This document shows, in pieces, positions 2,382 through 63,281 of a stretch of DNA of 64,000 nucleotides. The translations under genes were made by a program, and so were the position numbers. Within the stretch, counting starts at the first letter, position 1. Each line of letters starts with the position of its first letter. Below the pieces are notes generated by a model, which was given only the letters and a program-made list of their open reading frames with translations, had not been told where the DNA came from and did no database searches. Origin of the DNA: Escherichia coli (GTDB lineage: Bacteria > Pseudomonadota > Gammaproteobacteria > Enterobacterales > Enterobacteriaceae); assembly GCF_965641715.1 (NCBI RefSeq), contig NZ_OZ282453.1, one strand, 5' to 3'.

Positions 2382-3752
2382 ATGGCTCGTTCTTTTAAAG
2401 TCTTATCGCCAACGGCAATCCTCGGGTATGGATTCCCGGAAGAGAGCTTCCGCAAAGCGATGGCAGAATCGCCCGATCTGATCGCCGTTGATGCAGGCTC
2501 TTCCGATCCAGGCCCCCACTACCTCGGGGCAGGCAAACCGTTTACCGATCGCGCAGGGGTCAAGCGCGATCTGCGCTATATGATCACCGCAGGCGTGCAA
2601 AATAATATACCGGTGGTGATCGGAACGGCCGGCGGTTCTGGTGCCGCACCACACCTGGAGTGGTGCCGAGAAATAATTCATGAGATTGCCCAGGAAGAGC
2701 ACCTCTCGTTCTCGATGGCGTTGATCCCGGCAGACGTTGACAAAGCCATCGTCCACCAGGCGCTGGATAACGGCAAAATCACGGCGCTGGAGTTTGTCCC
2801 GCCGTTAACCCACGACGCGATTGACGAAAGTACGTATATCGTCGCGCAAATGGGCATCGAACCCTTCCAGCGGGCGCTGAAAGAAGGCGCGCAAGTGGTG
2901 CTGGGCGGGCGCGCTTACGACCCGGCCTGCTTTGCTGCGCTCCCGATCATGCAAGGCTTTGATGAAGGTCTGGCGCTGCATTGTGGGAAAATCCTTGAGT
3001 GCGCAGCAATCGCCGCAACGCCCGGCTCAGGCTCTGACTGTGCGATGGGCATCATTGATGACAACGGCTTTACGCTGAAGACATTTAATCCGAAGCGTAA
3101 ATTTACCGAAACGTCAGCAGCTGCACACACACTGTATGAGAAATCCGATCCCTACTTCCTGCCAGGACCTGGCGGCGTGTTGAACCTGAAAGGCTGCACA
3201 TTTAAAGCAGTCAATGACGGCGAAGTCTACGTCAGCGGTTCTAAGCATGAAGAAACGCCGTATGCCCTGAAACTGGAAGGTGCACGACGGGTGGGCTTCC
3301 GCTGTCTGACCATCGCCGGAACGCGCGACCCGATTATGATCGCCGGGATCGATAAAATCATCGATGAAGTCAAAACCAGCGTTTCGCGTAACCTGTCGCT
3401 CGACGATGACAGCATTCGCATCAATTTCCACCTGTACGGCAAAAACGGGGTGATGGGAGACCATGAACCGATGCAAACTGCCGGGCATGAGCTGGGGATT
3501 GTCCTTGATGTAGTTGCACCGACCCAGGAAATTGCCAACAGCGTTTGCTCGCTGGTGCGCTCTACCATGCTGCACTACGGCTATGAAAACCGCATCGCTA
3601 CCGCAGGTAATCTGGCGTTCCCGTTCTCCCCTTCTGATATCCAGGGCGGGCCGGTATACGAATTTTCCATATATCACCTGATTGAAGCCAACGACGCTCT
3701 GCGTTTTGATTTCCATATTGAACAGGTGACGCCAGAAGGAGTTCAGGCATGA
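2382..3752 (+). CDS. DUF1446 (AtuA-like) family protein, function unknown
   Basis: 456 aa ORF 3 nt after methylaspartase; family assignment from memory of AtuA-like proteins and needs an HMM check. Confidence 0.65.
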   Translation: MARSFKVLSPTAILGYGFPEESFRKAMAESPDLIAVDAGSSDPGPHYLGAGKPFTDRAGVKRDLRYMITAGVQNNIPVVIGTAGGSGAAPHLEWCREIIHEIAQEEHLSFSMALIPADVDKAIVHQALDNGKITALEFVPPLTHDAIDESTYIVAQMGIEPFQRALKEGAQVVLGGRAYDPACFAALPIMQGFDEGLALHCGKILECAAIAATPGSGSDCAMGIIDDNGFTLKTFNPKRKFTETSAAAHTLYEKSDPYFLPGPGGVLNLKGCTFKAVNDGEVYVSGSKHEETPYALKLEGARRVGFRCLTIAGTRDPIMIAGIDKIIDEVKTSVSRNLSLDDDSIRINFHLYGKNGVMGDHEPMQTAGHELGIVLDVVAPTQEIANSVCSLVRSTMLHYGYENRIATAGNLAFPFSPSDIQGGPVYEFSIYHLIEANDALRFDFHIEQVTPEGVQA

Positions 3753-4066
3753 AACAGTCAATTGTCTCACTGGCGCAAGTCATTCGTTCGAAAAATGCCG
3801 GACCTTACGAACTGGTTTTAGATATTTTATTTAAAACGAAAGAAAACTATGAGCGAGTTAAATCATCAGGGCAATTAACCCCAGAACTGATTGCGCGCTT
3901 ATATCATGTTGAACCAGACTTTATTCATCGTATTGTCTGGTTTGATCCTTCTAACGCAGTAAAAATCGTCATGCCACGAGATATTATCTCCGGGAATGTA
4001 GGTGACAATGATGTCTATGGTGCACAGCAACATGCACCTTTATTAAATATGAGTTTCGATTTGTAA
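3749..4066 (+). CDS. small DUF4387-like protein, usual partner of DUF1446
   Basis: 105 aa ORF whose start overlaps the upstream stop by 4 nt (ATGA), implying translational coupling. Confidence 0.55.
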   Translation: MKQSIVSLAQVIRSKNAGPYELVLDILFKTKENYERVKSSGQLTPELIARLYHVEPDFIHRIVWFDPSNAVKIVMPRDIISGNVGDNDVYGAQQHAPLLNMSFDL

Positions 4067-5614: not shown

Positions 5615-7267
5615 ATGTCCAAACCATTTATCTGGCAAGAACCGTTTCTACAAAATAAAGACGGTACAGAATATACATTAATTAGCGATCAACATATTAC
5701 AGTAACGGAATTAGACGGCGAAGAAGTGATAAAAATCGCTCCTGAAGCATTAACGCTGCTTGCCCGGCAGGCATTTTATGAAGCCTCTTTTTTCTTACGT
5801 TCCGCTCATTTGCAACAGGTCGCCAGCATTCTTAACGATCCGCAGGCCAGCAGTAATGATAAATACGTTGCGTTGCAGTTATTACGTAATGCTGAAGTCT
5901 CAGCAAAAGGGGTATTACCCAACTGTCAGGATACCGGCACCGCAACTATTATTGCCAGTAAAGGGCAACAGATATGGACCGGAGGTAACGACGCCGAAGC
6001 CTTAAGCAAAGGCATTTACACCACTTTTCAGGAAAATAATCTGCGCTTTTCACAAAATGCGCCGCTGGATATGTATACCGAAGTCAATACGCAAACCAAT
6101 CTCCCGGCGCAGATTGATATCTGCGCCGTCGCTGGTGATGAGTACCATTTCCTCTGTGTTAATAAAGGAGGCGGCTCTGCCAATAAAGCCGCGCTTTATC
6201 AGGAAACCAAATCCTTATTGCAACCAGAAAAACTGACCGCATTTTTAATCGAAAAAATGAAATCGCTGGGCACCGCTGCCTGCCCGCCTTACCACATCGC
6301 CTTTGTCGTCGGAGGGCTTTCAGCCGATCAAACCTTAAAAATTGCCAAGCTGGCCTCAACGAAATATTACGACAATTTGCCCACCAGCGGAAACGAGCAG
6401 GGACAAGCATTCCGTGATATTGAGCTGGAAAAAGCGTTGCTCGAGGCCAGTCAGCAATTTGGTATTGGTGCACAATTTGGGGGGAAATATTTCGCTCATG
6501 ATATTCGCGTCATTCGTCTGCCGCGTCACGGTGGCTCTTGCCCGATAGCTATGGCGCTCTCCTGTTCTGCCGATCGCAATATCAAAGCAAAAATTAACAA
6601 ACACGGTATCTGGCTGGAAAAACTCGAACACAATCCGGGGCAATATATTCCAGCCTCACTGCGGGAAGAAAATCACGCGCAACATGTACAACTGGATCTA
6701 AACCGTCCGTTGCGTGACGTGATGCTGGATCTCGCCAGATTACCGGTAGGCACCCGCGTGTCGTTAAGTGGTCCCATCGTAGTGGCGCGCGATATCGCCC
6801 ACGCCAAAATAAAAGCGCGGCTGGATAGCGGTGAATCGATGCCGGAGTACCTGAAGCATCATATTGTCTATTACGCTGGCCCGGCGAAAACACCGGAGAA
6901 CATGGCCTGCGGTTCACTGGGTCCAACTACGGGCGGTCGAATGGACGGTTATGTCGATACCTTCCAGGCGGCCGGCGGCAGTCTGGTGATGTTATCGAAA
7001 GGGAACCGCAGCCAGCAGGTCACCGATGCTTGTCACAAACATGGCGGCTTCAATCTGGGAAGTATTGGCGGTGCAGCTGCGTTACTGGCGCAAGAATATG
7101 TCAAAAGTCTGCGTTGCCTGGAATACCCGGAGCTGGGTATGGAAGCGGTGTGGATGATGGAAGTGGAAAATCTGCCCGCATTCATCCTGGTAGATGATAA
7201 AGGCAATAATTTCTTTAGTCTGTTTGAGCAGCAACACCGCTGCGCCAGTTGCCCTGCGGGACATTAA
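5615..7267 (+). CDS. fumD: class I (Fe-S) fumarate hydratase paralog, probable mesaconase/fumarase
   Basis: 550 aa, collinear with and highly similar to E. coli FumA as recalled; context with glutamate mutase and methylaspartase suggests mesaconate hydration. The symbol fumD is from memory of the O157:H7 literature. Confidence 0.8.
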
Positions 7268-54301: not shown

Positions 54302-55063
54302 TTAATCCGCTATGATTAAACGCGTCGACAAGGACGCCAGCGTTTTGCGCGTCTGCCCATCAAGCTGATTATCCGTAATAATCTCTGTCAGTTCATTAAG
54401 ATGCGCGATATTAAACAGCGACCATGAACCGTATTTTGAGCTGTCAGCCAGGAGAATTTTGCGCGAAGCATGCGCGATAAGATCGCGTTTTAGTGCGGCT
54501 TTCTCTTCCGTGGGTGCTGTAATACCCTTTTCAAGATCCCAGCTGTTACAGCTTAAAAATGCCACGTCCGGCCAGGTATTTTGCAGCATTTTACGACCAT
54601 GTTCGCCAATGCAGGACTGGCTGGAGTCGTCGATACGTCCGCCGATAATCGTCACTTCAATCTGCTTGAATTCAGCCAAAAAAAGCGCGATATGCAGGTC
54701 GCTGGTGATCACGCGAAGCGGTAAATGGGTAATCTGCCGCGCAAGTTCAATCATTGTCGTACCGGCATCAAGGACGACGGAATCCCCCGCTTTGACCATT
54801 GACGCCGCTGCGCTGGCGATGGCATGTTTTTCCGCCAGGCTGCGCTGCATTTTCTCATGGGTAGTCGGTTGGGTAGGAATAAACCGGTTGAGGGTCACAC
54901 CGCCGTGTGTACGGCTGATAACACCCTGCTCATCGAGTTTTATCAGGTCTCGACGAATCGTGGCCGGCGACGCATTGGTTACCGCCACCAGCTCATCAAC
55001 GGTGACCAGATTATGGCTTTTCAGGTAATCCATGATCTGCTCTAACCGGTTATATCCCTTCAT
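54302..55063 (-). CDS. DeoR/GlpR-family transcriptional regulator
   Basis: 253 aa; N-terminal HTH …[21 protein letters not shown]… typical of DeoR; last gene of the minus-strand kinase-dehydrogenase-regulator operon. Confidence 0.85.
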
Positions 55064-55064
55064 T

Positions 55065-56051
55065 TTATTCTCGCGAAATCTGCATTGCTAACTGGATGGA
55101 AACTGCCATGCTCTCAGACTTGGCTTTTCCTGTCCAGGCAATATCAAATGCGGTGCCGTGGTCGGCAGAAGTACGAATAAATGGCAACCCGGCGGTGATA
55201 TTCACCCCATCATAAAATCCAAGCAGTTTTAAAGGGATATGCCCCTGATCGTGGTACATAGCCACCACCATATCGAATAGCCCTTCATGGCACTGCATGA
55301 ACACGGTATCTGGCGGGCACGGGCCAGTAACATCAATATCTTCGGCCTGCATTGCTTCAATCGCAGGTGCGATAATCTCGATTTCCTCAGTGCCGAATAA
55401 ACCGTGTTCCCCTGCATGTGGATTTACACCCGCCACGGCAATACGCGGACGCTCAATACCGACACGTTTCAGGAAGTGGTTCGCAACTCGAATAACCGTT
55501 TTGACCCTTTCACCGTTCAATGTATCCAGGAATTTACGCAGTGAGATGTGAGTCGAAATATGGATAACCTTGAGCTTATCGGTATAGAGCACCATCGCGT
55601 ACTCTTTGCTGCCGGTAAGATGGGCCAGCAATTCCGTATGGCCAGGATAGTTATGCCCGCCAAGATGCAGCGCTTCTTTATTCAACGGCGCAGTGGCTAT
55701 GGCTTTCACCTCGCCTGATAAGGCCAGGGCCGTTGCACGTTTGATACAGCGATACGCTAAATCGCCTGCCGCAGCCTGTACCACTCCGGGTGTCAGCGCA
55801 TCGGGGTTAGCCAGCGGCTCATCCATCACGTTAATCACGCCGGGAGCAAAGTGGGCGTCGCACACCTTTTGAATGACGCGTAACTCTGTCTGCGGCGTGA
55901 TATTCATCGCCATAATACGTCGTAACGTGCGCACACAGCCCACCACCACCACCGGGGCACCAGCAAGCCCGGCTTCGCTCAGGGATTTAATAATGATCTC
56001 CGGGCCAATACCCGCCGGATCGCCCATCGTTACCGCAATAATATTATTCAC
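55065..56051 (-). CDS. PdxA-family NAD-dependent dehydrogenase (PdxA2-like)
   Basis: 328 aa with a PdxA-type N-terminus (…[14 protein letters not shown]…); adjacent to a DUF1537 kinase. Confidence 0.8.
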
Positions 56052-57282
56052 TACGCTTCTCCTCGATAAAATTCAGAACCTGATGCAACGTGGTCTCATC
56101 GCCAAACCCACCGGCTTTCGTCATCACCGAACGGGACCAGACGCCGCCCAGAAAGTGACCGTATGGAACGCACTGCGCCACCTTCCCCGTAATACGAAAC
56201 CCGGTCGCACCTAACGCACTGGCTGTTGCCATTGCGACATCGCCACCAGAGAGATAAAGGGCATCAGGGGTGACACGAAGCAGAACTTGCCGGGTAAGTT
56301 CGCCAAGAAACCGGCAAATTTTTTCCCCAAGCGCAGCGCGACTCATCTGCCAACGCTGGCAAAGGGTGTCGATATGGTGCCTTGCTTCAGAATCGGTACA
56401 GGTGTGGACAATGCAGTGGTCCCCTTTCTGTAAGGCCTGCACAATACGCGCGTCATAGCCCCTGGCGTTGCCTGCCAGAATGTGTTCAACATCGACGTAT
56501 ATCTGTGTGATACGTGAGTGTGAATGCAGTGTGGCGATCTGCCGTTGAGCGATTTCGCTCATTGAACCAATAATGGCCAGCACGGTGGGTGGCGGCATAA
56601 TCGCCGAGCGCCGGGCAACGGCATCACAAATACCAGCGGAGCCGACCAGCAGCAGCGGTTGTTTAGCCTGCATCACAGCGGCAGCGATGCAATCCAGGTC
56701 GCTGTCCGTCTGCGCATCCATCACCCCAATCCACGGTTGCTCACGAGACAAATGGCTGAGCTCAGAAACTGTAACGGGCTGGCATGGAATGGCCGTCTGC
56801 AACCGAATGATGTCCGCAATTCGTGCGCTCATTACCGGGGTTTTTGGATCGCTGGCAAACTCGGTTTCCGTTAGCCGCACGCCGTTTACCCGACACTCAC
56901 CGTCCACCGTGGTCCTTCCCACCTGGGGAAATGCGGGGGCAACCACTGCGCCCGTTATGCCGCATGCCTGCATCAGGGCTTCAATTTCTGCGCCGATATT
57001 CCCTCGCAGCGTGGAATCTATCTTTTTAATCATGAGCGGCGGGTTATTCGCCAGAGGGAGATGACTCATCAGCGAGGTCATTTTCATCGCGGCCTGCTTA
57101 GGATCCATCGCCCGACTGTCGCTATTAATCACCCATACGCTTGCATCACCGTGATAAGGCGTTGCAAAGGCCACATCAACCGTATGTCCCACCTGCGCCA
57201 GGCTTACTCCTGCGTCGTTGGCCCCTGTGAAATCATCGGCAACGACGAGAATGCTCGGCTTAGTGATTCCCTTTTCCATCAT
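56044..57282 (-). CDS. four-carbon acid-sugar kinase family protein (DUF1537; DtnK/OtnK/DenK-like)
   Basis: N-terminal …ILVVADDFTGANDAG… motif; start ambiguous (57282, 57279 or 57321); overlaps the PdxA-family gene by 8 nt. Confidence 0.75.
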   Translation of the reverse strand: MMEKGITKPSILVVADDFTGANDAGVSLAQVGHTVDVAFATPYHGDASVWVINSDSRAMDPKQAAMKMTSLMSHLPLANNPPLMIKKIDSTLRGNIGAEIEALMQACGITGAVVAPAFPQVGRTTVDGECRVNGVRLTETEFASDPKTPVMSARIADIIRLQTAIPCQPVTVSELSHLSREQPWIGVMDAQTDSDLDCIAAAVMQAKQPLLLVGSAGICDAVARRSAIMPPPTVLAIIGSMSEIAQRQIATLHSHSRITQIYVDVEHILAGNARGYDARIVQALQKGDHCIVHTCTDSEARHHIDTLCQRWQMSRAALGEKICRFLGELTRQVLLRVTPDALYLSGGDVAMATASALGATGFRITGKVAQCVPYGHFLGGVWSRSVMTKAGGFGDETTLHQVLNFIEEKRSE

Positions 57283-57299
57283 CACTCCAGGTTGTTTTA

Positions 57300-57448
57300 T
57301 GATGACAATGATTATATTCAATCACGATTGATTAAATGTGAGCAAGTTCAAGTTATTAATCACTCGAATAAATTATAAAATTAGGCCATGTTACGTAGAC
57401 AACGGTATTTTGAATGATTGATTTCAATCACGAGAAGAGAGGTTATTT
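57300..57448. promoter_or_regulatory. divergent promoter/operator region with repeated TTCAATCACGA motifs
   Basis: Motif at 57318-57328 and 57423-57433, each next to a gattgatt half-site; lies between the divergent kinase and alcohol-dehydrogenase operons. Confidence 0.45.
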
Positions 57449-58606
57449 GTGGTAATTATCAATAGCACGATACTGAGCGGCGCAGGCGCTATCCCTTCCC
57501 TGACGTCGCTCTTACCCGGCGTCAGAAAATTGCTGCTGGTCACAGACAGCAATATTGCGCAGCTTAACGGAGTGCAGCAGATTCGCGCCTTACTGGAAAA
57601 GCACTGCCCGCAGGTGAGCGTTATCGATAATGTGCCTGCAGAGCCTACGCATCATGATGTGCGCCAGCAAATGGCGACCCTCGGCAACGCGTCGTTTGAT
57701 GTAGTAGTGGGCGTCGGCGGCGGCAGCGTGCTGGATGTCGCAAAACTGTTGTCGGTGCTTTGTCACCCCGATTCACCGGGGCTGGATGCGCTGCTTGCCG
57801 GTGAAAAACCGACGCAGCGGGTGCAATCATGGTTGATTCCTACAACCGCCGGTACCGGCTCAGAAGCCACGCCAAATGCGATTCTGGCGATCCCTGAACA
57901 AAGCACGAAGGTGGGTATTATTTCTCCGGTGCTGCTACCGGATTATGTGGCACTTTTCCCCGAGCTGACCACCAGCATGCCCGCACATATTGCAGCGTCT
58001 ACGGGCATTGATGCGCTTTGTCACTTACTGGAGTGTTTTACCGCGACCGTGGCAAATCCGGTCAGCGATAACGCGGCGCTAACCGGGTTAAGTAAGCTTT
58101 TCCGGCATATTCAACCCGCCGTGAACGATCCTCAGGATCTGCGCGCAAAACTGGAAATGCTGTGGGCGTCTTACTATGGCGGCGTAGCGATAACCCATGC
58201 GGGCACGCACCTGGTCCATGCGCTCTCCTACCCGTTAGGCGGCAAATATCACCTGCCGCACGGTGTGGCGAATGCCATCTTGCTGGCACCGTGCATGGCG
58301 GTTGTTCGCCCCTGGGCGGTCGAGAAATTTGCCCAGGTCTGGGATTGCATTCCCGATGCGGATACATCCTTGAGCGCGGAAGAGAAATCTCACGCTCTGG
58401 TGGCCTGGCTACAGGCATTAGTCAATCAACTCAAGCTGCCCAACAATCTCGCGGATCTTGGCGTACCGCCAGATGATATTACGTCTCTTAGCGCGGCGGC
58501 ACTGAACGTGAAGCGCCTGATGAACAATTCCCCCTGCCAACTGAATCAGCGGGACGTGCAGGCCATTTACCAAACGCTGTTTCCGCAACATCAATTTAAG
58601 GAGTAA
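57449..58606 (+). CDS. iron-containing (group III) alcohol dehydrogenase family oxidoreductase
   Basis: 385 aa with GTG start and upstream RBS gagaagagagg; GGGSVLD nucleotide-binding motif. Confidence 0.8.
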   Translation: MVIINSTILSGAGAIPSLTSLLPGVRKLLLVTDSNIAQLNGVQQIRALLEKHCPQVSVIDNVPAEPTHHDVRQQMATLGNASFDVVVGVGGGSVLDVAKLLSVLCHPDSPGLDALLAGEKPTQRVQSWLIPTTAGTGSEATPNAILAIPEQSTKVGIISPVLLPDYVALFPELTTSMPAHIAASTGIDALCHLLECFTATVANPVSDNAALTGLSKLFRHIQPAVNDPQDLRAKLEMLWASYYGGVAITHAGTHLVHALSYPLGGKYHLPHGVANAILLAPCMAVVRPWAVEKFAQVWDCIPDADTSLSAEEKSHALVAWLQALVNQLKLPNNLADLGVPPDDITSLSAAALNVKRLMNNSPCQLNQRDVQAIYQTLFPQHQFKE

Positions 58607-58609
58607 ATC

Positions 58610-59497
58610 ATGCCAAAAACCATTGAAGGTGTATTAACCGCCATCGTCACCCCGTTTACCGCGACCGGCGTCCTGAATCTCCCGGCGTTAAAAGTGCAGG
58701 TTAATCGCCAACTGGAAGCCGGTAACGCGATTTTTTGCGGCGGCACCAACGGCGAGTTTTTTGTGTTGAACGAACAGGAGAAGCTCAGCGTTACGCAAAC
58801 CTGCGTGGATGAAGTGGCTGGCCGCGCACCGGTCGTGGCGCACATTGGTGAGATCTCGACGCGCGAAACCATTCGTCTGGGTCAGCAGATTGAAAAACTG
58901 GGCGTTGATGCGGTATCGGTCATTACCCCGTACTTTGTACCGCTAAAACAGGAAGAGCTGATTGCCCATTACACCGCAATTGCCGACGCACTAAGCATTC
59001 CCATGTTTCTCTATAACATCCCGGCCCGCACCGGCAATACGATTCAGCCGGAAACCGCGCGCGCTCTGGCGTCGCATCCCAATATCATTGGGATTAAAGA
59101 CAGCGCCGGAAGCTACGAAAGCCTGAAGGGTTTTCTCGATGCTGTGCGCAACATTGACGGCTTTAATGTGCTCAACGGCCCGGATTCGCTGATCCATAAA
59201 GGGTTTGTCGAGGGGTGTTCAGCCTGTATTTCCGGGCTCGCCAACGTCGCGCCGCGAGAAATCAATGCCATCTGGTCTCGCTTCCATGCCGGTGATATTG
59301 AAGGATCGTATCAGGCACAGGAGAGTGTGACTGGCCTGCGTACCGATCTTTATAAAGTAGCATTCTCCCCAGCTGCGGTGAAAAAAGCGTTGCAGCTTAT
59401 GGGGCATGATGTTGGTGATAGCCGCTACGCGGTTAATTTCACGCCTGAACAGATCAGCGAGATTCAACAAATTATTCGTCATTATCACATTAATTAA
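58610..59497 (+). CDS. DapA/NanA-family class I aldolase (dihydrodipicolinate synthase-like lyase)
   Basis: 295 aa with GTNGE motif, a Tyr in ITPYF and a Schiff-base Lys candidate in IIGIKDS (Lys163); 3 nt after the dehydrogenase gene. Confidence 0.8.
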   Translation: MPKTIEGVLTAIVTPFTATGVLNLPALKVQVNRQLEAGNAIFCGGTNGEFFVLNEQEKLSVTQTCVDEVAGRAPVVAHIGEISTRETIRLGQQIEKLGVDAVSVITPYFVPLKQEELIAHYTAIADALSIPMFLYNIPARTGNTIQPETARALASHPNIIGIKDSAGSYESLKGFLDAVRNIDGFNVLNGPDSLIHKGFVEGCSACISGLANVAPREINAIWSRFHAGDIEGSYQAQESVTGLRTDLYKVAFSPAAVKKALQLMGHDVGDSRYAVNFTPEQISEIQQIIRHYHIN

Positions 59498-59556
59498 ATT
59501 AACTCTATTATCCAGCCCGCTATAACGTATAGATAAAGAGAATAAAGGATTACCCC

Positions 59557-60315
59557 ATGTTTTTGTGGTTTATGCAGCCAGATATCTGGCTCACTTTAAT
59601 TACCCTCACCTTTCTGGAAATTATTCTCGGGGTGGATAATATTATTTTTCTTTCACTGGTGGTGGCAAAACTTCCGTTATCACAACAAAATATGGCGCGT
59701 AAACTGGGTTTAAGCTGCGCGATGATTATGCGGATATTATTGCTGATATCCATTGCGTGGCTTTCACATATTACCCAGCCGCTTTTTACCGTGCTGGCGC
59801 TGGAGATTTCGTTCCGCACGTTGATTCTACTCGGGGGCGGGCTGTTCCTGATTTATAAAGCGATACAGGAGATACGCGAAGAGTTGTCGCCCGCGCAGGA
59901 AGACGCGCATGGCAGCGGGTCGCGGCAGCTGTCGCTGTGCGGTGCTATCGTACAGATAATGCTGCTGGATATTGTGTTCAGCCTGGACTCGGTGATCACC
60001 GCCGTCGGCCTTTCTCAGCATATATTTATTATGATTGCTGCCGTCATGATTGCCGTTGGCATCATGATGTTTGCGGCGAAAACCATTGGTGACTTCGTGA
60101 ACGCGACGCCATCGATAAAAATACTGGCGTTAACCTTTTTATTATTTGTCGGCGTATTGTTGGTTGCCGATAGCCTCAATATTCATATTGCCAAAGAGTA
60201 TCTCTACTTCGCGATATTTTTCTCATTAAGCGTGGAGACACTCAATATTTTCCGTGAAAGAAGACATAAAAAAGTTTCGACATCGATCGAAACGCATGAA
60301 TCGAACTCGCATTAA
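59557..60315 (+). CDS. TerC-family integral membrane protein
   Basis: 252 aa polytopic protein with a TerC-like …LEIILGVDNIIFLSLV… motif. Confidence 0.7.
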   Translation: MFLWFMQPDIWLTLITLTFLEIILGVDNIIFLSLVVAKLPLSQQNMARKLGLSCAMIMRILLLISIAWLSHITQPLFTVLALEISFRTLILLGGGLFLIYKAIQEIREELSPAQEDAHGSGSRQLSLCGAIVQIMLLDIVFSLDSVITAVGLSQHIFIMIAAVMIAVGIMMFAAKTIGDFVNATPSIKILALTFLLFVGVLLVADSLNIHIAKEYLYFAIFFSLSVETLNIFRERRHKKVSTSIETHESNSH

Positions 60316-60350
60316 TAAATCTATTACCGACTTTAAGATGGAGTCTAACT

Positions 60351-61520
60351 ATGTCTGTAGCTCTTATTCGTGACGGCGTCATCCGTCCGTCCGAAAATGA
60401 TTCGCATGTGCTTACCGCCATGCTGCCCTCGTCCTGCCCGCAAAACCACGCGGCGAATATTCTGCCTTTGCCGGATGGCGCGTTAATGTGCGTCTGGTTT
60501 GCGGGAACGCAGGAAGGTATTGCCGATATTTCCGTCTGGGGATCGCGGCTGCCCGCTGGCGGAACGCAGTGGAGCGATGCGGTCAAACTGTCCCACGATG
60601 ACACGCGTTCAGAGCAGAACCCGGTACTGTTTCTCGCACCGGATAACGTGCTGTGGCTGCTATGGACCGCACAAATATCCGGTAATCAGGACACCGCCAT
60701 CGTCCGCTACCGTAAGTCAGACGACCTCGGACAAACCTGGGGCGAGATTGCCACGCTGCTCGATAAACCCGGCACGTTCATTCGCCAGCCGATCACGGTG
60801 CTTGATAACGGCAACTGGCTGCTGCCCGTCTTTTATTGCCGTACCCAACCCGGTGAAAAATGGGTCGGCAATGATGATATCAGCGCAGTGAAAATTTCCG
60901 CTGACGGTGGTCACTCATGGCGCGATGTCGAGGTGCCGCAAAGTCTCGGCTGCGTTCATATGAATATCACAATGCTGCACGACGGTACGTTGGCTGCTCT
61001 CTTTCGCAGCCGTTGGGCAGACAACATCTATATCAGCCATTCTGCGGACCACGGCGAGAGCTGGTCGGTGCCGCAAGCAACCGAACTGCCCAACAACAAT
61101 TCGTCTATTCAGGTGACGACGCTTGCCAGCGGTGAGCTGGCGCTGGTGTACAACGCAATGAGTGCGGCAGGCGCAGTAGAACGTCGCGCGTCGCTGTATG
61201 ACGAAATCGACGATGGCGACGACAGTCGCAAAGAACCCACAGCCGTTGGACGCTCCGCTTTCTGGGGTGCCCCGCGCGCGCCGATGACGGTAGCGATTTC
61301 TGCCGATGGCGGGAAAAGCTGGCCGTGGCGGCGCAATCTCGATGAAGGCGATGGCTACTGCATGACCAACAATTCGCTGGAAAAGCTAAATCGCGAGTTC
61401 TCCTACCTCAGTATCAAACAAAGCCCGGACGGTACGCTGCATATCGCTTACACCTGGTGGCGTCAGGCCATCAAGTACGTGCGCATCTCCCCCGAGTGGG
61501 TTAAGGGGCAGGCATTATGA
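60351..61520 (+). CDS. BNR/Asp-box repeat protein, sialidase-superfamily beta-propeller, predicted cytoplasmic
   Basis: Four Asp-boxes: SDDLGQTW (60717-60740), SADGGHSW (60897-60920), SADHGESW (61041-61064), SADGGKSW (61299-61322); N-terminal IRP resembles the sialidase RIP motif; no signal peptide apparent. Confidence 0.75.
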   Translation: MSVALIRDGVIRPSENDSHVLTAMLPSSCPQNHAANILPLPDGALMCVWFAGTQEGIADISVWGSRLPAGGTQWSDAVKLSHDDTRSEQNPVLFLAPDNVLWLLWTAQISGNQDTAIVRYRKSDDLGQTWGEIATLLDKPGTFIRQPITVLDNGNWLLPVFYCRTQPGEKWVGNDDISAVKISADGGHSWRDVEVPQSLGCVHMNITMLHDGTLAALFRSRWADNIYISHSADHGESWSVPQATELPNNNSSIQVTTLASGELALVYNAMSAAGAVERRASLYDEIDDGDDSRKEPTAVGRSAFWGAPRAPMTVAISADGGKSWPWRRNLDEGDGYCMTNNSLEKLNREFSYLSIKQSPDGTLHIAYTWWRQAIKYVRISPEWVKGQAL

Positions 61521-61987
61521 TTATCGGGAATCTCAACCATTTGTCACAGGCGGGGCTTCCCGCTGGCGTGAAAAATATTCTGCTGCGCCCGGAATGTTCG
61601 TTACGGGCGTTATCCGCCAGAGAGGACGGTCGCTGGCAACTGGAAGGATGCCGGTGGTTCTGCACGCTGGGCCTTTCAGACACGCAGCCCGCCGATCTCC
61701 GGCATACGGAGTATCACCATCTGTGGGCCGATATTCAGGTGGTGATTGCCGGTTGTGAGGGCATTAATGCGGGGACGCGGCCCGTAGCGCAGGAAAGCGA
61801 TGAAGAACGTAAGCCCGATCTGTTTATCGCCCCATCCCCTGAAAACAGTGTCGCAATCACCTTACACCCCGGTGATTTCGCCGTCTTTATGCCAGAAGAA
61901 CCCCATCAGGCGCTGTGCGCGGTTGGCGCGGCCACGTCAGTACGTAAAGCGGTCTTTAAGGTACCGCGCGACATGCTGGAAGCCTAA
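61517..61987 (+). CDS. YhcH/YjgK/YiaL-family (DUF386) protein, putative ulosonic-acid anomerase
   Basis: 156 aa resembling E. coli YhcH (…GDFAVFMPEEPH… versus YhcH …GMFAVFMPGEPH…); overlaps the upstream gene by 4 nt. Confidence 0.75.
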   Translation: MIIGNLNHLSQAGLPAGVKNILLRPECSLRALSAREDGRWQLEGCRWFCTLGLSDTQPADLRHTEYHHLWADIQVVIAGCEGINAGTRPVAQESDEERKPDLFIAPSPENSVAITLHPGDFAVFMPEEPHQALCAVGAATSVRKAVFKVPRDMLEA

Positions 61988-62000
61988 AAGGAGAGAAAAA

Positions 62001-63281
62001 ATGACAATGGAAATGATCCTGGCATTAGGAATACTGGTCCTGATGATCGTGCTGATCATGTCGGACAAAATGCCCTTTGGCGCACCGCCACTGCTTGCGT
62101 GTTTATTGCTGGTTGTCTCGGGGCTGTCGACGGTTCAACAGGCTTTTGCCGGATTCGTCAATCCAAGCGTGGTGATGATTGCAGGGTTTATGGTGGTGAT
62201 GGCTGCGCTACAAAAAACCCGGCTTATCAGCAACGTTAAATCTGCGATGATAAGCCTGGTCAATAAAGGCAGTTACCGCAGTTATGGGCTGTTGTTAGTC
62301 ATCGTTATGCTGGGCGCCAGTCTTGCCGGCACCGGCGCGACGGGTTATTACGTGCTGATTCTGTCTCTGGTATCCACCATTCCGTACAGTAAAAAGCTAC
62401 CAACATCGAAATTGATGATGCCACTGGGATTTGCCACCAACCATCCGCTTCTTCCTATCAATCTCGCGCTTCTCTTTGGCGTCACGGCGACCGTACTCGA
62501 AACAGCCGGTTTTCATCAGGAGATTTCGATGGGGCGCTTTGCGCTGGTGAATCTCGTCATGTCAGCGGCTTTTCTGGCGTGGAGTCTGATTGCCTACCGT
62601 TTTCTTCCGGATCATCCCATTGCGGATGCTTCCGAGGATGCGCTGGCCGCACGCGAAGAAACGTTTAACGCCCTTCCTGCCTGGAAAGAGTATTGCACCA
62701 TCGCCGCATTCGCCGTCAGCGTTATCGGCATGATGCTGATGAATATGCTGGGTAATATCGCCTTCGTTATTCCAGGCCTTGCGGGTGCGTTTGTTCTGAT
62801 GATCGATGTACTGGACTTTAAAGAAGTTCGCGATCATATGGGGGCACCGGTCATTTTAATGATGGCGGGGGTGATCGGTGTGGCTGATGCGCTGGCTGGC
62901 ACCGGCTTTACGGCAATGGTAGGCGATGCCGTTGCAGGTGTGCTCGGGTCTGGCGTCTCACCGTTTGTATTTATTGTCGCCTTTGCTTTACTTACCAGTA
63001 CCTGCGCCACCTTCACGGGTTCGAATATGGGGTCAGTCTATATTTTTGCCCCCATCGCCATTGCCGCCTGTACTAGCCTTGGGCTTAACCCGACCGCTGC
63101 CGCGATTGCGGTGGTGATTTCTGGCTGGAATGGCGGCTATATGCCTATTGACGGAATGCCAGCCATGATCCTCGGAATGGGGAAATACAAACTTCCCGAA
63201 TTCTGGGTGTTCTCTGTACCAATGTATCTCATCCGCATTCTGGCGCTTTGTGCAGGCGCTGTTTTTATCTTCCCAATGTAA
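62001..63281 (+). CDS. ion-transporter superfamily permease (DASS/CitMHS/ArsB-like), putative organic anion transporter
   Basis: 426 aa polytopic membrane protein; start taken at the ATG 7 nt after the aaggaga RBS (MTMEMILALGIL…), not the ORF-track start at 61800 which overlaps the upstream gene. Confidence 0.7.
   Translation: MTMEMILALGILVLMIVLIMSDKMPFGAPPLLACLLLVVSGLSTVQQAFAGFVNPSVVMIAGFMVVMAALQKTRLISNVKSAMISLVNKGSYRSYGLLLVIVMLGASLAGTGATGYYVLILSLVSTIPYSKKLPTSKLMMPLGFATNHPLLPINLALLFGVTATVLETAGFHQEISMGRFALVNLVMSAAFLAWSLIAYRFLPDHPIADASEDALAAREETFNALPAWKEYCTIAAFAVSVIGMMLMNMLGNIAFVIPGLAGAFVLMIDVLDFKEVRDHMGAPVILMMAGVIGVADALAGTGFTAMVGDAVAGVLGSGVSPFVFIVAFALLTSTCATFTGSNMGSVYIFAPIAIAACTSLGLNPTAAAIAVVISGWNGGYMPIDGMPAMILGMGKYKLPEFWVFSVPMYLIRILALCAGAVFIFPM

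Follow-up and report, generated by a model that had tools for sequence, protein, structure and literature searches.

Conserved palindromes in the divergent dtnK-alcohol dehydrogenase control region of an Escherichia coli accessory island as candidate operators of a DeoR-family regulator

The control region between two divergent operons of an Escherichia coli accessory island contains a repeated sequence, which raises the question of whether the repeat is an operator, which protein would bind it, and whether both operons are placed under one local regulator in this way. The window analysed is a stretch of 64 kb (64,000 nucleotides) of E. coli DNA, to which the coordinates refer unless another locus is named. 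The minus-strand operon comprises dtnK (D-threonate kinase, 56044-57279), pdxA2 (D-threonate 4-phosphate dehydrogenase, 55065-56051) and, as its last gene, the gene for a DeoR/GlpR-family regulator (54302-55063), which is the candidate binder; the junctions of these three genes are tight, with an 8-nt overlap and a 1-nt gap. Both enzymes were assigned as NCBIfam equivalogs with scores above the respective cut-offs (531.8 bits versus 450 for dtnK and 680.9 versus 583 for pdxA2), and the RefSeq annotation of the E. coli orthologues agrees with these calls. The divergent operon on the plus strand (57449-63281) starts with the GTG at 57449 and encodes an alcohol dehydrogenase (Fe-ADH, below ADH), a DHDPS-family protein, a TerC-family protein, a BNR/sialidase-family protein, a YhcH-family protein and an SLC13/DASS permease. 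The gap between the two operons, 169 bp in length, forms the control region.

The island is located between glnS and nagE; of 5426 complete E. coli genomes, 1047 carry it, among them Nissle 1917 and an ST131 strain. In a comparison of ExPEC genomes it was named "GR6" and listed among the uncharacterised features, and it is complete in CFT073 (PMC12928451). The allele in the window (54302-63281) matches the best of the 5426 complete E. coli genomes at 95.6%, with flanks at 99-99.8%, and looks like a divergent or recombinant allele. No published description of the regulator or operator of this island was found in a literature search, and the conserved sites reported here are apparently undescribed before.

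An earlier, sequence-only reading of the region had taken an 11-mer, repeated 105 bp apart, as the direct repeat recognised by the regulator. Pattern search and direct reading showed that the 64-kb window holds exactly two copies of the 11-mer TTCAATCACGA, at 57317-57327 and 57423-57433. The count was correct, and the first coordinate (57318-57328) had been placed one base too high, so that the spacing is 106 bp instead of 105 bp. The gattgatt element reported beside each copy is indeed present, as GATTGATT at 57326-57333 and 57416-57423. The repeat itself is longer than the 11-mer: two direct copies of 21 nt on the plus strand (57307-57327 and 57413-57433), identical at 18 of 21 positions, each contain one 11-mer, and inside each of them lies a palindrome of the form TGATT-N6-AATCA, named here O1 (57309-57324) and O2 (57415-57430). 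This pattern occurs in the window at O1 and O2 only, against 0.07 occurrences expected, and when the 169-bp intergenic region was shuffled 5000 times with its dinucleotides preserved, 0.76% of the shuffles contained an exact direct repeat of at least 11 nt. Within E. coli the 11-mer varies in its final CGA, other strains carrying CATGA or CACAA in copy 1 and CACCA or CAACA in copy 2, and the exact identity of the two 11-mers is therefore specific to this strain. The conserved core common to both copies is TTCAATCA, which lies within the 16-mer. Since conservation does not extend to the last 3 nt of the 11-mer, the 11-mer direct repeat does not hold as the recognition unit; the conserved bases define this unit as an imperfect palindrome of 16 bp, TGATT-N6-AATCA or TGA-N8-AATCA, which the 11-mer overstates on one side and understates on the other.

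For the comparison between species, an alignment of the regulator was scanned against one genome per species, and 80 loci were obtained in Enterobacterales. The divergent ADH/dtnK architecture is the same in approximately 70 of these 80 loci, which belong to gut as well as plant-associated genera. A footprint was derived from the intergenic alignment together with anchored counts, in which the species are not independent samples. Mean column conservation was 0.99 for O1, 1.0 for the sequence TGATTA at 57329-57334, 0.93 for a CRP-like box at 57334-57355 and 0.82 for the AATAAATTATAAA block, whose TATAA core reaches at least 95%; in the dtnK leader and the linkers, i.e. the flanking non-coding DNA, it was 0.52-0.68. 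Flanking non-coding DNA has diverged to about 50-60% in the approximately 70 species with an essentially invariant O1. The geometry of the region is fixed as well, with a distance of 28 bp from the start of O1 to the CRP-like box in every species, and of 37 bp from this box to the ADH -10 block in 63 of the 69 loci where the block was found. In the form TGA-N8-AATCA, O2 is kept in 67 of 70 intergenic regions; AATCA on its right is the same throughout, and the left half varies (TT, GC, CG and others) with no compensating change. The spacing between O1 and O2 is 102-107 bp in 61 of 70 regions, 122-124 bp in six, and 94, 100 and 112 bp once each. Spacings of 102-107 and 94 bp are near 10 and 9 helical turns, and those of 100, 112 and 122-124 bp also occur. 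A degenerate O2 was seen at loci L024, L064, L077 and L076 and in Aeromonas, where O1, TGATTA and the CRP-like box are exact and O2 is no better than a 2-mismatch candidate.

The exact palindrome was also counted in 1.12 Mb of related loci, where 92 occurrences fall in 14.7 kb of ADH-dtnK intergenic DNA and seven elsewhere. Five of these seven lie in the equivalent kdgT-dtnK-pdxA2-deoR promoters and the other two are unrelated. Both sites are under selection, keep their arrangement and co-occur with the regulator gene. The degree of conservation supports strong purifying selection on the two sites, which look functional.

O1 (TGATTATATTCAATCA), identical in nearly all of about 70 species, ends 30 bp upstream of the dtnK ATG (57279), and O2 (TGATTGATTTCAATCA) is followed after 6 nt by the ADH Shine-Dalgarno sequence GAGAGG (57437-57442) and after 18 nt by the GTG at 57449. 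The repeats had been said to sit near the kinase start and the ADH ribosome-binding site, and these distances bear this out. A PWM built from the O2 sites alone scores O1 at 22 bits on both strands. Read on the minus strand, O1 is TGATTGAATATAATCA and holds a perfect TATAAT (57316 to 57311), which is the predicted -10 hexamer of the dtnK-pdxA2-deoR promoter (57311-57316, minus strand), with a predicted start at about 57303-57304 and a leader of about 24 nt to dtnK containing a conserved GGAG. The same TATAAT within O1 is also kept where the operon begins with kdgT. The hexamer is invariant because it lies within O1, and part of the invariance of O1 could in turn come from the embedded -10 hexamer and not from repressor contacts.

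For the ADH operon, the predicted -10 hexamer is TATAAA (57374-57379, plus strand), located in the conserved block AATAAATTATAAA (57367-57380), with a predicted start at about 57386; relative to this start, O2 would cover about +30 to +45. A strict scan of the intergenic region gave neither a full sigma-70 promoter nor a terminator, and for this reason the promoters were assigned by hand, from conserved -10-like hexamers and CRP geometry. Scans for terminators at the ends of the two operons added nothing informative. No recognisable -35 element was found at either the predicted dtnK or the predicted ADH promoter. The missing full sigma-70 match and the missing -35 elements fit activator-dependent promoters with weak -35 regions and a class II dependence on CRP.

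The candidate for such an activator site is the CRP-like box AAATGTGAGCAAGTTCAAGTTA (57334-57355, centre 57344.5), which agrees with the CRP consensus AAATGTGATCTAGATCACATTT at 16 of 22 positions. Its left half is perfect; the right half, TCAAG, matches poorly, and a spacer that does not vary is not what a pure CRP site usually shows. The box is centred at about -41.5 from the predicted ADH start and at about -40.5 to -41.5 from the predicted dtnK start, and the distance from its centre to the end of the -10 hexamer is 34.5 bp on the ADH side and 33.5 bp on the dtnK side. The half-site TGATTA at 57329-57334 extends into a weak palindrome, TGATTAAATGTGAGCA (57329-57344), named here O1', which starts 20 bp after the start of O1, reaches into the left half of the CRP-like box and shows two mismatches to the palindrome pattern in all species. 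This arrangement suggests that O1 and O1' form a tandem operator overlapping the CRP-like box. The sequence-only reading had listed the two repeats and had missed both the half-site and the CRP-like box.

Several exceptional loci bear on the assignment of these elements. At L049 and L065 a KdgT-type permease gene stands in front of dtnK and there is no divergent ADH operon; both loci keep O1 and an O2-like palindrome approximately 101 bp apart. The AATAAATTATAAA block is absent in L049, L065 and L076, all of them without the divergent ADH operon, and its loss together with this operon in L049 and L065 is the reason for its assignment to the ADH promoter. The retention of O2 in the same two loci suggests that O2 works with O1 and is not only ADH-specific. 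In L065 (Enterobacter sp.) two perfect TGATT-N6-AATCA palindromes are found 20 bp apart at 3735-3770 of the locus, the perfect TGATTGTATTAAATCA occupying the O1' position, where other species have TGATTAAATGTGAGCA. This second perfect palindrome, 20 bp after O1, is a further suggestion of a tandem O1/O1' operator. The CRP-like box is missing in L065 and present in all other species. Four Pantoea loci (L050, L051, L055 and L075, at about 6900-7000) have a DeoR orthologue with approximately 75% identity and an identical helix-turn-helix core, without dtnK or pdxA2, and carry a remnant of the pdxA2 3'-end just upstream. The operator motif is absent at these loci, which keep only the regulator gene; the pdxA2 remnant indicates that they have decayed, and they are therefore of little weight as a negative control.

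Some further matches and variants were noted. The only other strong PWM match in the window, TGAGCGAGTTAAATCA at 3850-3865 (21 bits), was rejected as an operator, as it lies inside a DUF4387 coding sequence of an AtuA-family accessory cluster and is probably due to chance. In three loci of the Klebsiella oxytoca group (L022, L033 and L035) a PWM match of 23-24 bits is found at position 5630 inside the dtnK coding sequence, which could be an internal operator or chance. One clinical isolate, E. coli 323_BP0014 (L084), shows a change of AATCA to GATCA in O1, at the equivalent of 57320, as well as a change of CTCC to CACC (plus strand) in the Shine-Dalgarno region of dtnK, at the equivalent of 57286.

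Nine ORFs of the island were screened, and the DeoR-family regulator was the only one recognised as a DNA-binding protein. Like its orthologues it carries the DeoR helix-turn-helix (PF08220) and the DeoRC sensor domain (PF00455). Its scores against the NCBIfam models were 173 bits for AgaR (cut-off 260), 170 for YgbI (cut-off 400), 170 for GlpR_Halo (cut-off 300), 142 for SrlR (cut-off 350) and 84 for DeoR (cut-off 244), with UlaR also among the matches; no named NCBIfam equivalog cut-off was reached. By its profile matches the regulator represents a distinct, unnamed DeoR subfamily. In a search of solved structures its sole relative was the DeoR C-terminal domain 7L6L (E = 6.5e-9), and the structure searches with the regulator and with the BNR protein gave nothing informative on function. 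We know of no common consensus among DeoR-family operators, and the sequence alone can therefore not assign the sites to this family.

From the position and conservation of the sites, we consider it probable that O1 and O2 are operators of the DeoR/GlpR-family repressor encoded in the dtnK operon, with O1 occluding the dtnK promoter and O2 acting as an auxiliary site. As the predicted dtnK -10 hexamer lies inside O1, a repressor bound there would exclude RNA polymerase from the dtnK promoter, and deoR would in this way be autoregulated. On O1', the repressor would compete with CRP, and since the CRP-like box lies about 41 bp from both predicted starts, a repressor at this place could also compete with activation. 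O2 lies about 106 bp away, within the predicted first stretch of the ADH transcript, and would probably act in cooperation with O1, possibly through a short loop around the CRP box and the ADH promoter; the alternative is a downstream roadblock. The known effectors of DeoR-family regulators are mostly phosphosugars, which makes the kinase product D-threonate 4-phosphate a likely inducer, and a phosphorylated pathway intermediate of this kind would be expected. The earlier proposal of a DeoR operator tying both operons to the local regulator thus keeps its substance, in that the sites are strongly conserved, occupy repressor-like positions and co-occur with deoR-dtnK-pdxA2; what it had misidentified is the unit. 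Its suggestion of spaced repeats with DNA looping was too confident; looping is no more than compatible with the data, the spacing being mostly 102-107 bp but also 94, 100, 112 or 122-124 bp.

The proposed arrangement can be compared with several known systems. YgbI is an autoregulated DeoR-family repressor with a single ChIP-exo peak in a divergent intergenic region, overlapping a promoter (PMC8464067). The island regulator is 32% identical to it over the full length, and both are local regulators of an operon with a DUF1537 four-carbon acid-sugar kinase. However, the likely YgbI operator is TGTTAATTTATGTGA-like and unrelated to TGATT-N6-AATCA, and ygbI is transcribed divergently, whereas the island regulator is encoded at the end of the operon that it would control. 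With 170 bits against a YgbI cut-off of 400, the island regulator is not a YgbI orthologue. In the ygbI-ygbJ gap of E. coli K-12 (L085, 3313-3421), three TGTTAATTTATGTGA-like copies of 15-16 nt were observed, two of them as an inverted pair 5 nt apart and the third 57 nt further on; these are likely the YgbI operators.

GlpR, a repressor of the DeoR family with a sugar phosphate as inducer, binds palindromic operators with half-sites of about 10 bp, often in tandem with a 20-bp periodicity; in divergent control regions these share bases with core promoters and CRP sites. The 20 bp between the starts of O1 and O1' resemble the tandem glp operators, but the half-site sequence is another one and only two or three sites are present here. 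In the gal operon, the operators OE and OI lie about 11 helical turns apart and bracket the promoter and the CRP site, one of them upstream and the other among the first transcribed bases; GalR, a member of the LacI family, needs HU at the apex of the loop. Similarly, O1 and O2 are centred at about -69.5 and +36.5 from the predicted ADH start, 106 bp apart, although looping at the island is only a possibility, the spacing is not strictly phased, and the regulator belongs to the DeoR and not to the LacI family. E. coli DeoR, the namesake of the family, binds a 16-bp palindromic operator overlapping the -10 region and represses cooperatively by looping through O1, O2 and OE. The island resembles it in a 16-bp palindromic candidate operator over a predicted -10 hexamer, and the structural relative of its regulator is 7L6L; it differs in that the deo operators (TGTTAGAA/TTCTAACA) lie hundreds of bp apart and that the regulator reaches only 84 bits with the DeoR model. 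AgaR, the DeoR-family repressor of the N-acetylgalactosamine regulon, acts on several operators at divergent CRP-dependent promoters, and its site consensus is a TTTC-rich direct repeat. It is the best NCBIfam neighbour of the island regulator (173 bits), but this score is below the cut-off of 260, and the TTTC-rich consensus is unrelated to the island palindrome.

Other explanations of the two sites have to be weighed against this repressor-operator reading. The same repressor might use O1 and O2 as independent operators with no loop, through occlusion at O1 and a separate roadblock of the ADH operon at O2. Within the main cluster of 102-107 bp the spacing varies by up to half a helical turn, out-of-phase distances of 100, 112 and 122-124 bp occur, and O2 is placed inside the predicted ADH transcript, at about +30 to +45. 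As the spacing is not strictly phased, such non-looping operators remain plausible; we regard them as possible but somewhat unlikely, given that in L049 and L065 there is no ADH operon to block and O2 is still found about 101 bp from O1. That the sites are bound by a factor encoded elsewhere, global or unlinked, instead of the island DeoR-family protein is unlikely. The link between protein and DNA is one that we infer, AT-rich palindromes loosely resemble parts of several known boxes, and O2 of the window contains TTGATttcaATCAc (57418-57431), which matches the FNR box at nine of ten positions. However, none of the FNR-like and similar resemblances is kept from species to species, and the motif is confined to promoters of operons carrying the regulator and is absent at the decayed loci with deoR only. 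The named candidates of this kind were rejected: FNR because its 9/10 match is found in O2 of the window alone, Fur because of its 7-1-7 spacing versus 7-2-7 here, and ArgR (TGAAT-N4-ATTCA), Cra, KdgR and IHF because their boxes did not fit in consensus spacing, the comparisons being made by eye.

The DeoR-family protein could also work from these sites as an activator, as FucR does within this family, and the centre of O1 at about -69.5 from the predicted ADH start would be compatible with activation. However, O1 covers the predicted dtnK -10 hexamer and O2 lies downstream of the ADH start, which are typical repressor positions, and the closest studied relative, YgbI, is a repressor; we consider activation quite improbable. 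Conservation as an RNA or DNA hairpin or leader, for instance as a cis-element in the ADH 5' UTR, is very improbable. Each site could form a stem of 5 bp and O2 lies in the predicted 5' UTR, but among 58 distinct O2 sequences the two variable stem pairs are broken in 33 without compensation (covariation score 0), no Rfam family came near its gathering score, and the predicted folding of the leader is no better than that of shuffled sequences (z = 0.23). The possibility that the repeat arose by chance in AT-rich intergenic DNA can hardly be given any credit: the repeat does lie in AT-rich DNA, and its two copies agree in the final 3 nt of the 11-mer in this strain only, but the shuffle probability of 0.0076, the two occurrences of the pattern against the 0.07 expected and, above all, the near-invariance in about 70 species refute it.

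The genes that the sites would control suggest an undescribed pathway ending in D-threonate, and no published account of such a D-threonate pathway was found in a literature search. The SLC13 or the KdgT permease would import the substrate, on which the BNR and YhcH proteins would act. A DHDPS-type lyase would then split a 3-deoxy-2-ulosaric acid, e.g. Dha from the rhamnogalacturonan-II of pectin, into pyruvate and 2,3-dihydroxy-4-oxobutanoate, which Fe-ADH would reduce to D-threonate; DtnK and PdxA2 would convert the latter to DHAP. The D-lyxo stereochemistry at C5/C6 presumably predicts D-threonate as the product, by chemical reasoning. Across the loci, the regulator, PdxA2, ADH and DHDPS are about 72-85% identical, and DtnK is 41-59% identical. 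DtnK evolves much faster than its neighbours and even within Escherichia is only 90-97% identical. The TerC-family gene (59557-60315) was detected only in the Escherichia, Klebsiella and Kluyvera loci, and in many other genera the DHDPS gene is separated from the BNR gene by about 1.4 kb of another sequence. A more extended model would combine a three-site repressosome (the O1/O1' tandem with O2 one loop of about 10 turns away), a DeoR subfamily sensing D-threonate 4-phosphate, two divergent CRP-dependent promoters sharing one box, and a regulon for a Dha-type pathway; taken as a whole, this model is doubtful and is put forward as a speculation.

In the reading preferred here, with O1 and O2 as operators of the island DeoR/GlpR-family repressor, the control region would be an ordinary, conventional gene switch for catabolic operons. 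From the operator model follow individual bases for mutation, a fragment of 170 bp for footprinting and a motif for regulon searches in genomes carrying the island. The regulator and its sites form a candidate sensor/promoter pair for D-threonate or D-threonate phosphate, and the operator model may offer a handle on the substrate of the island.
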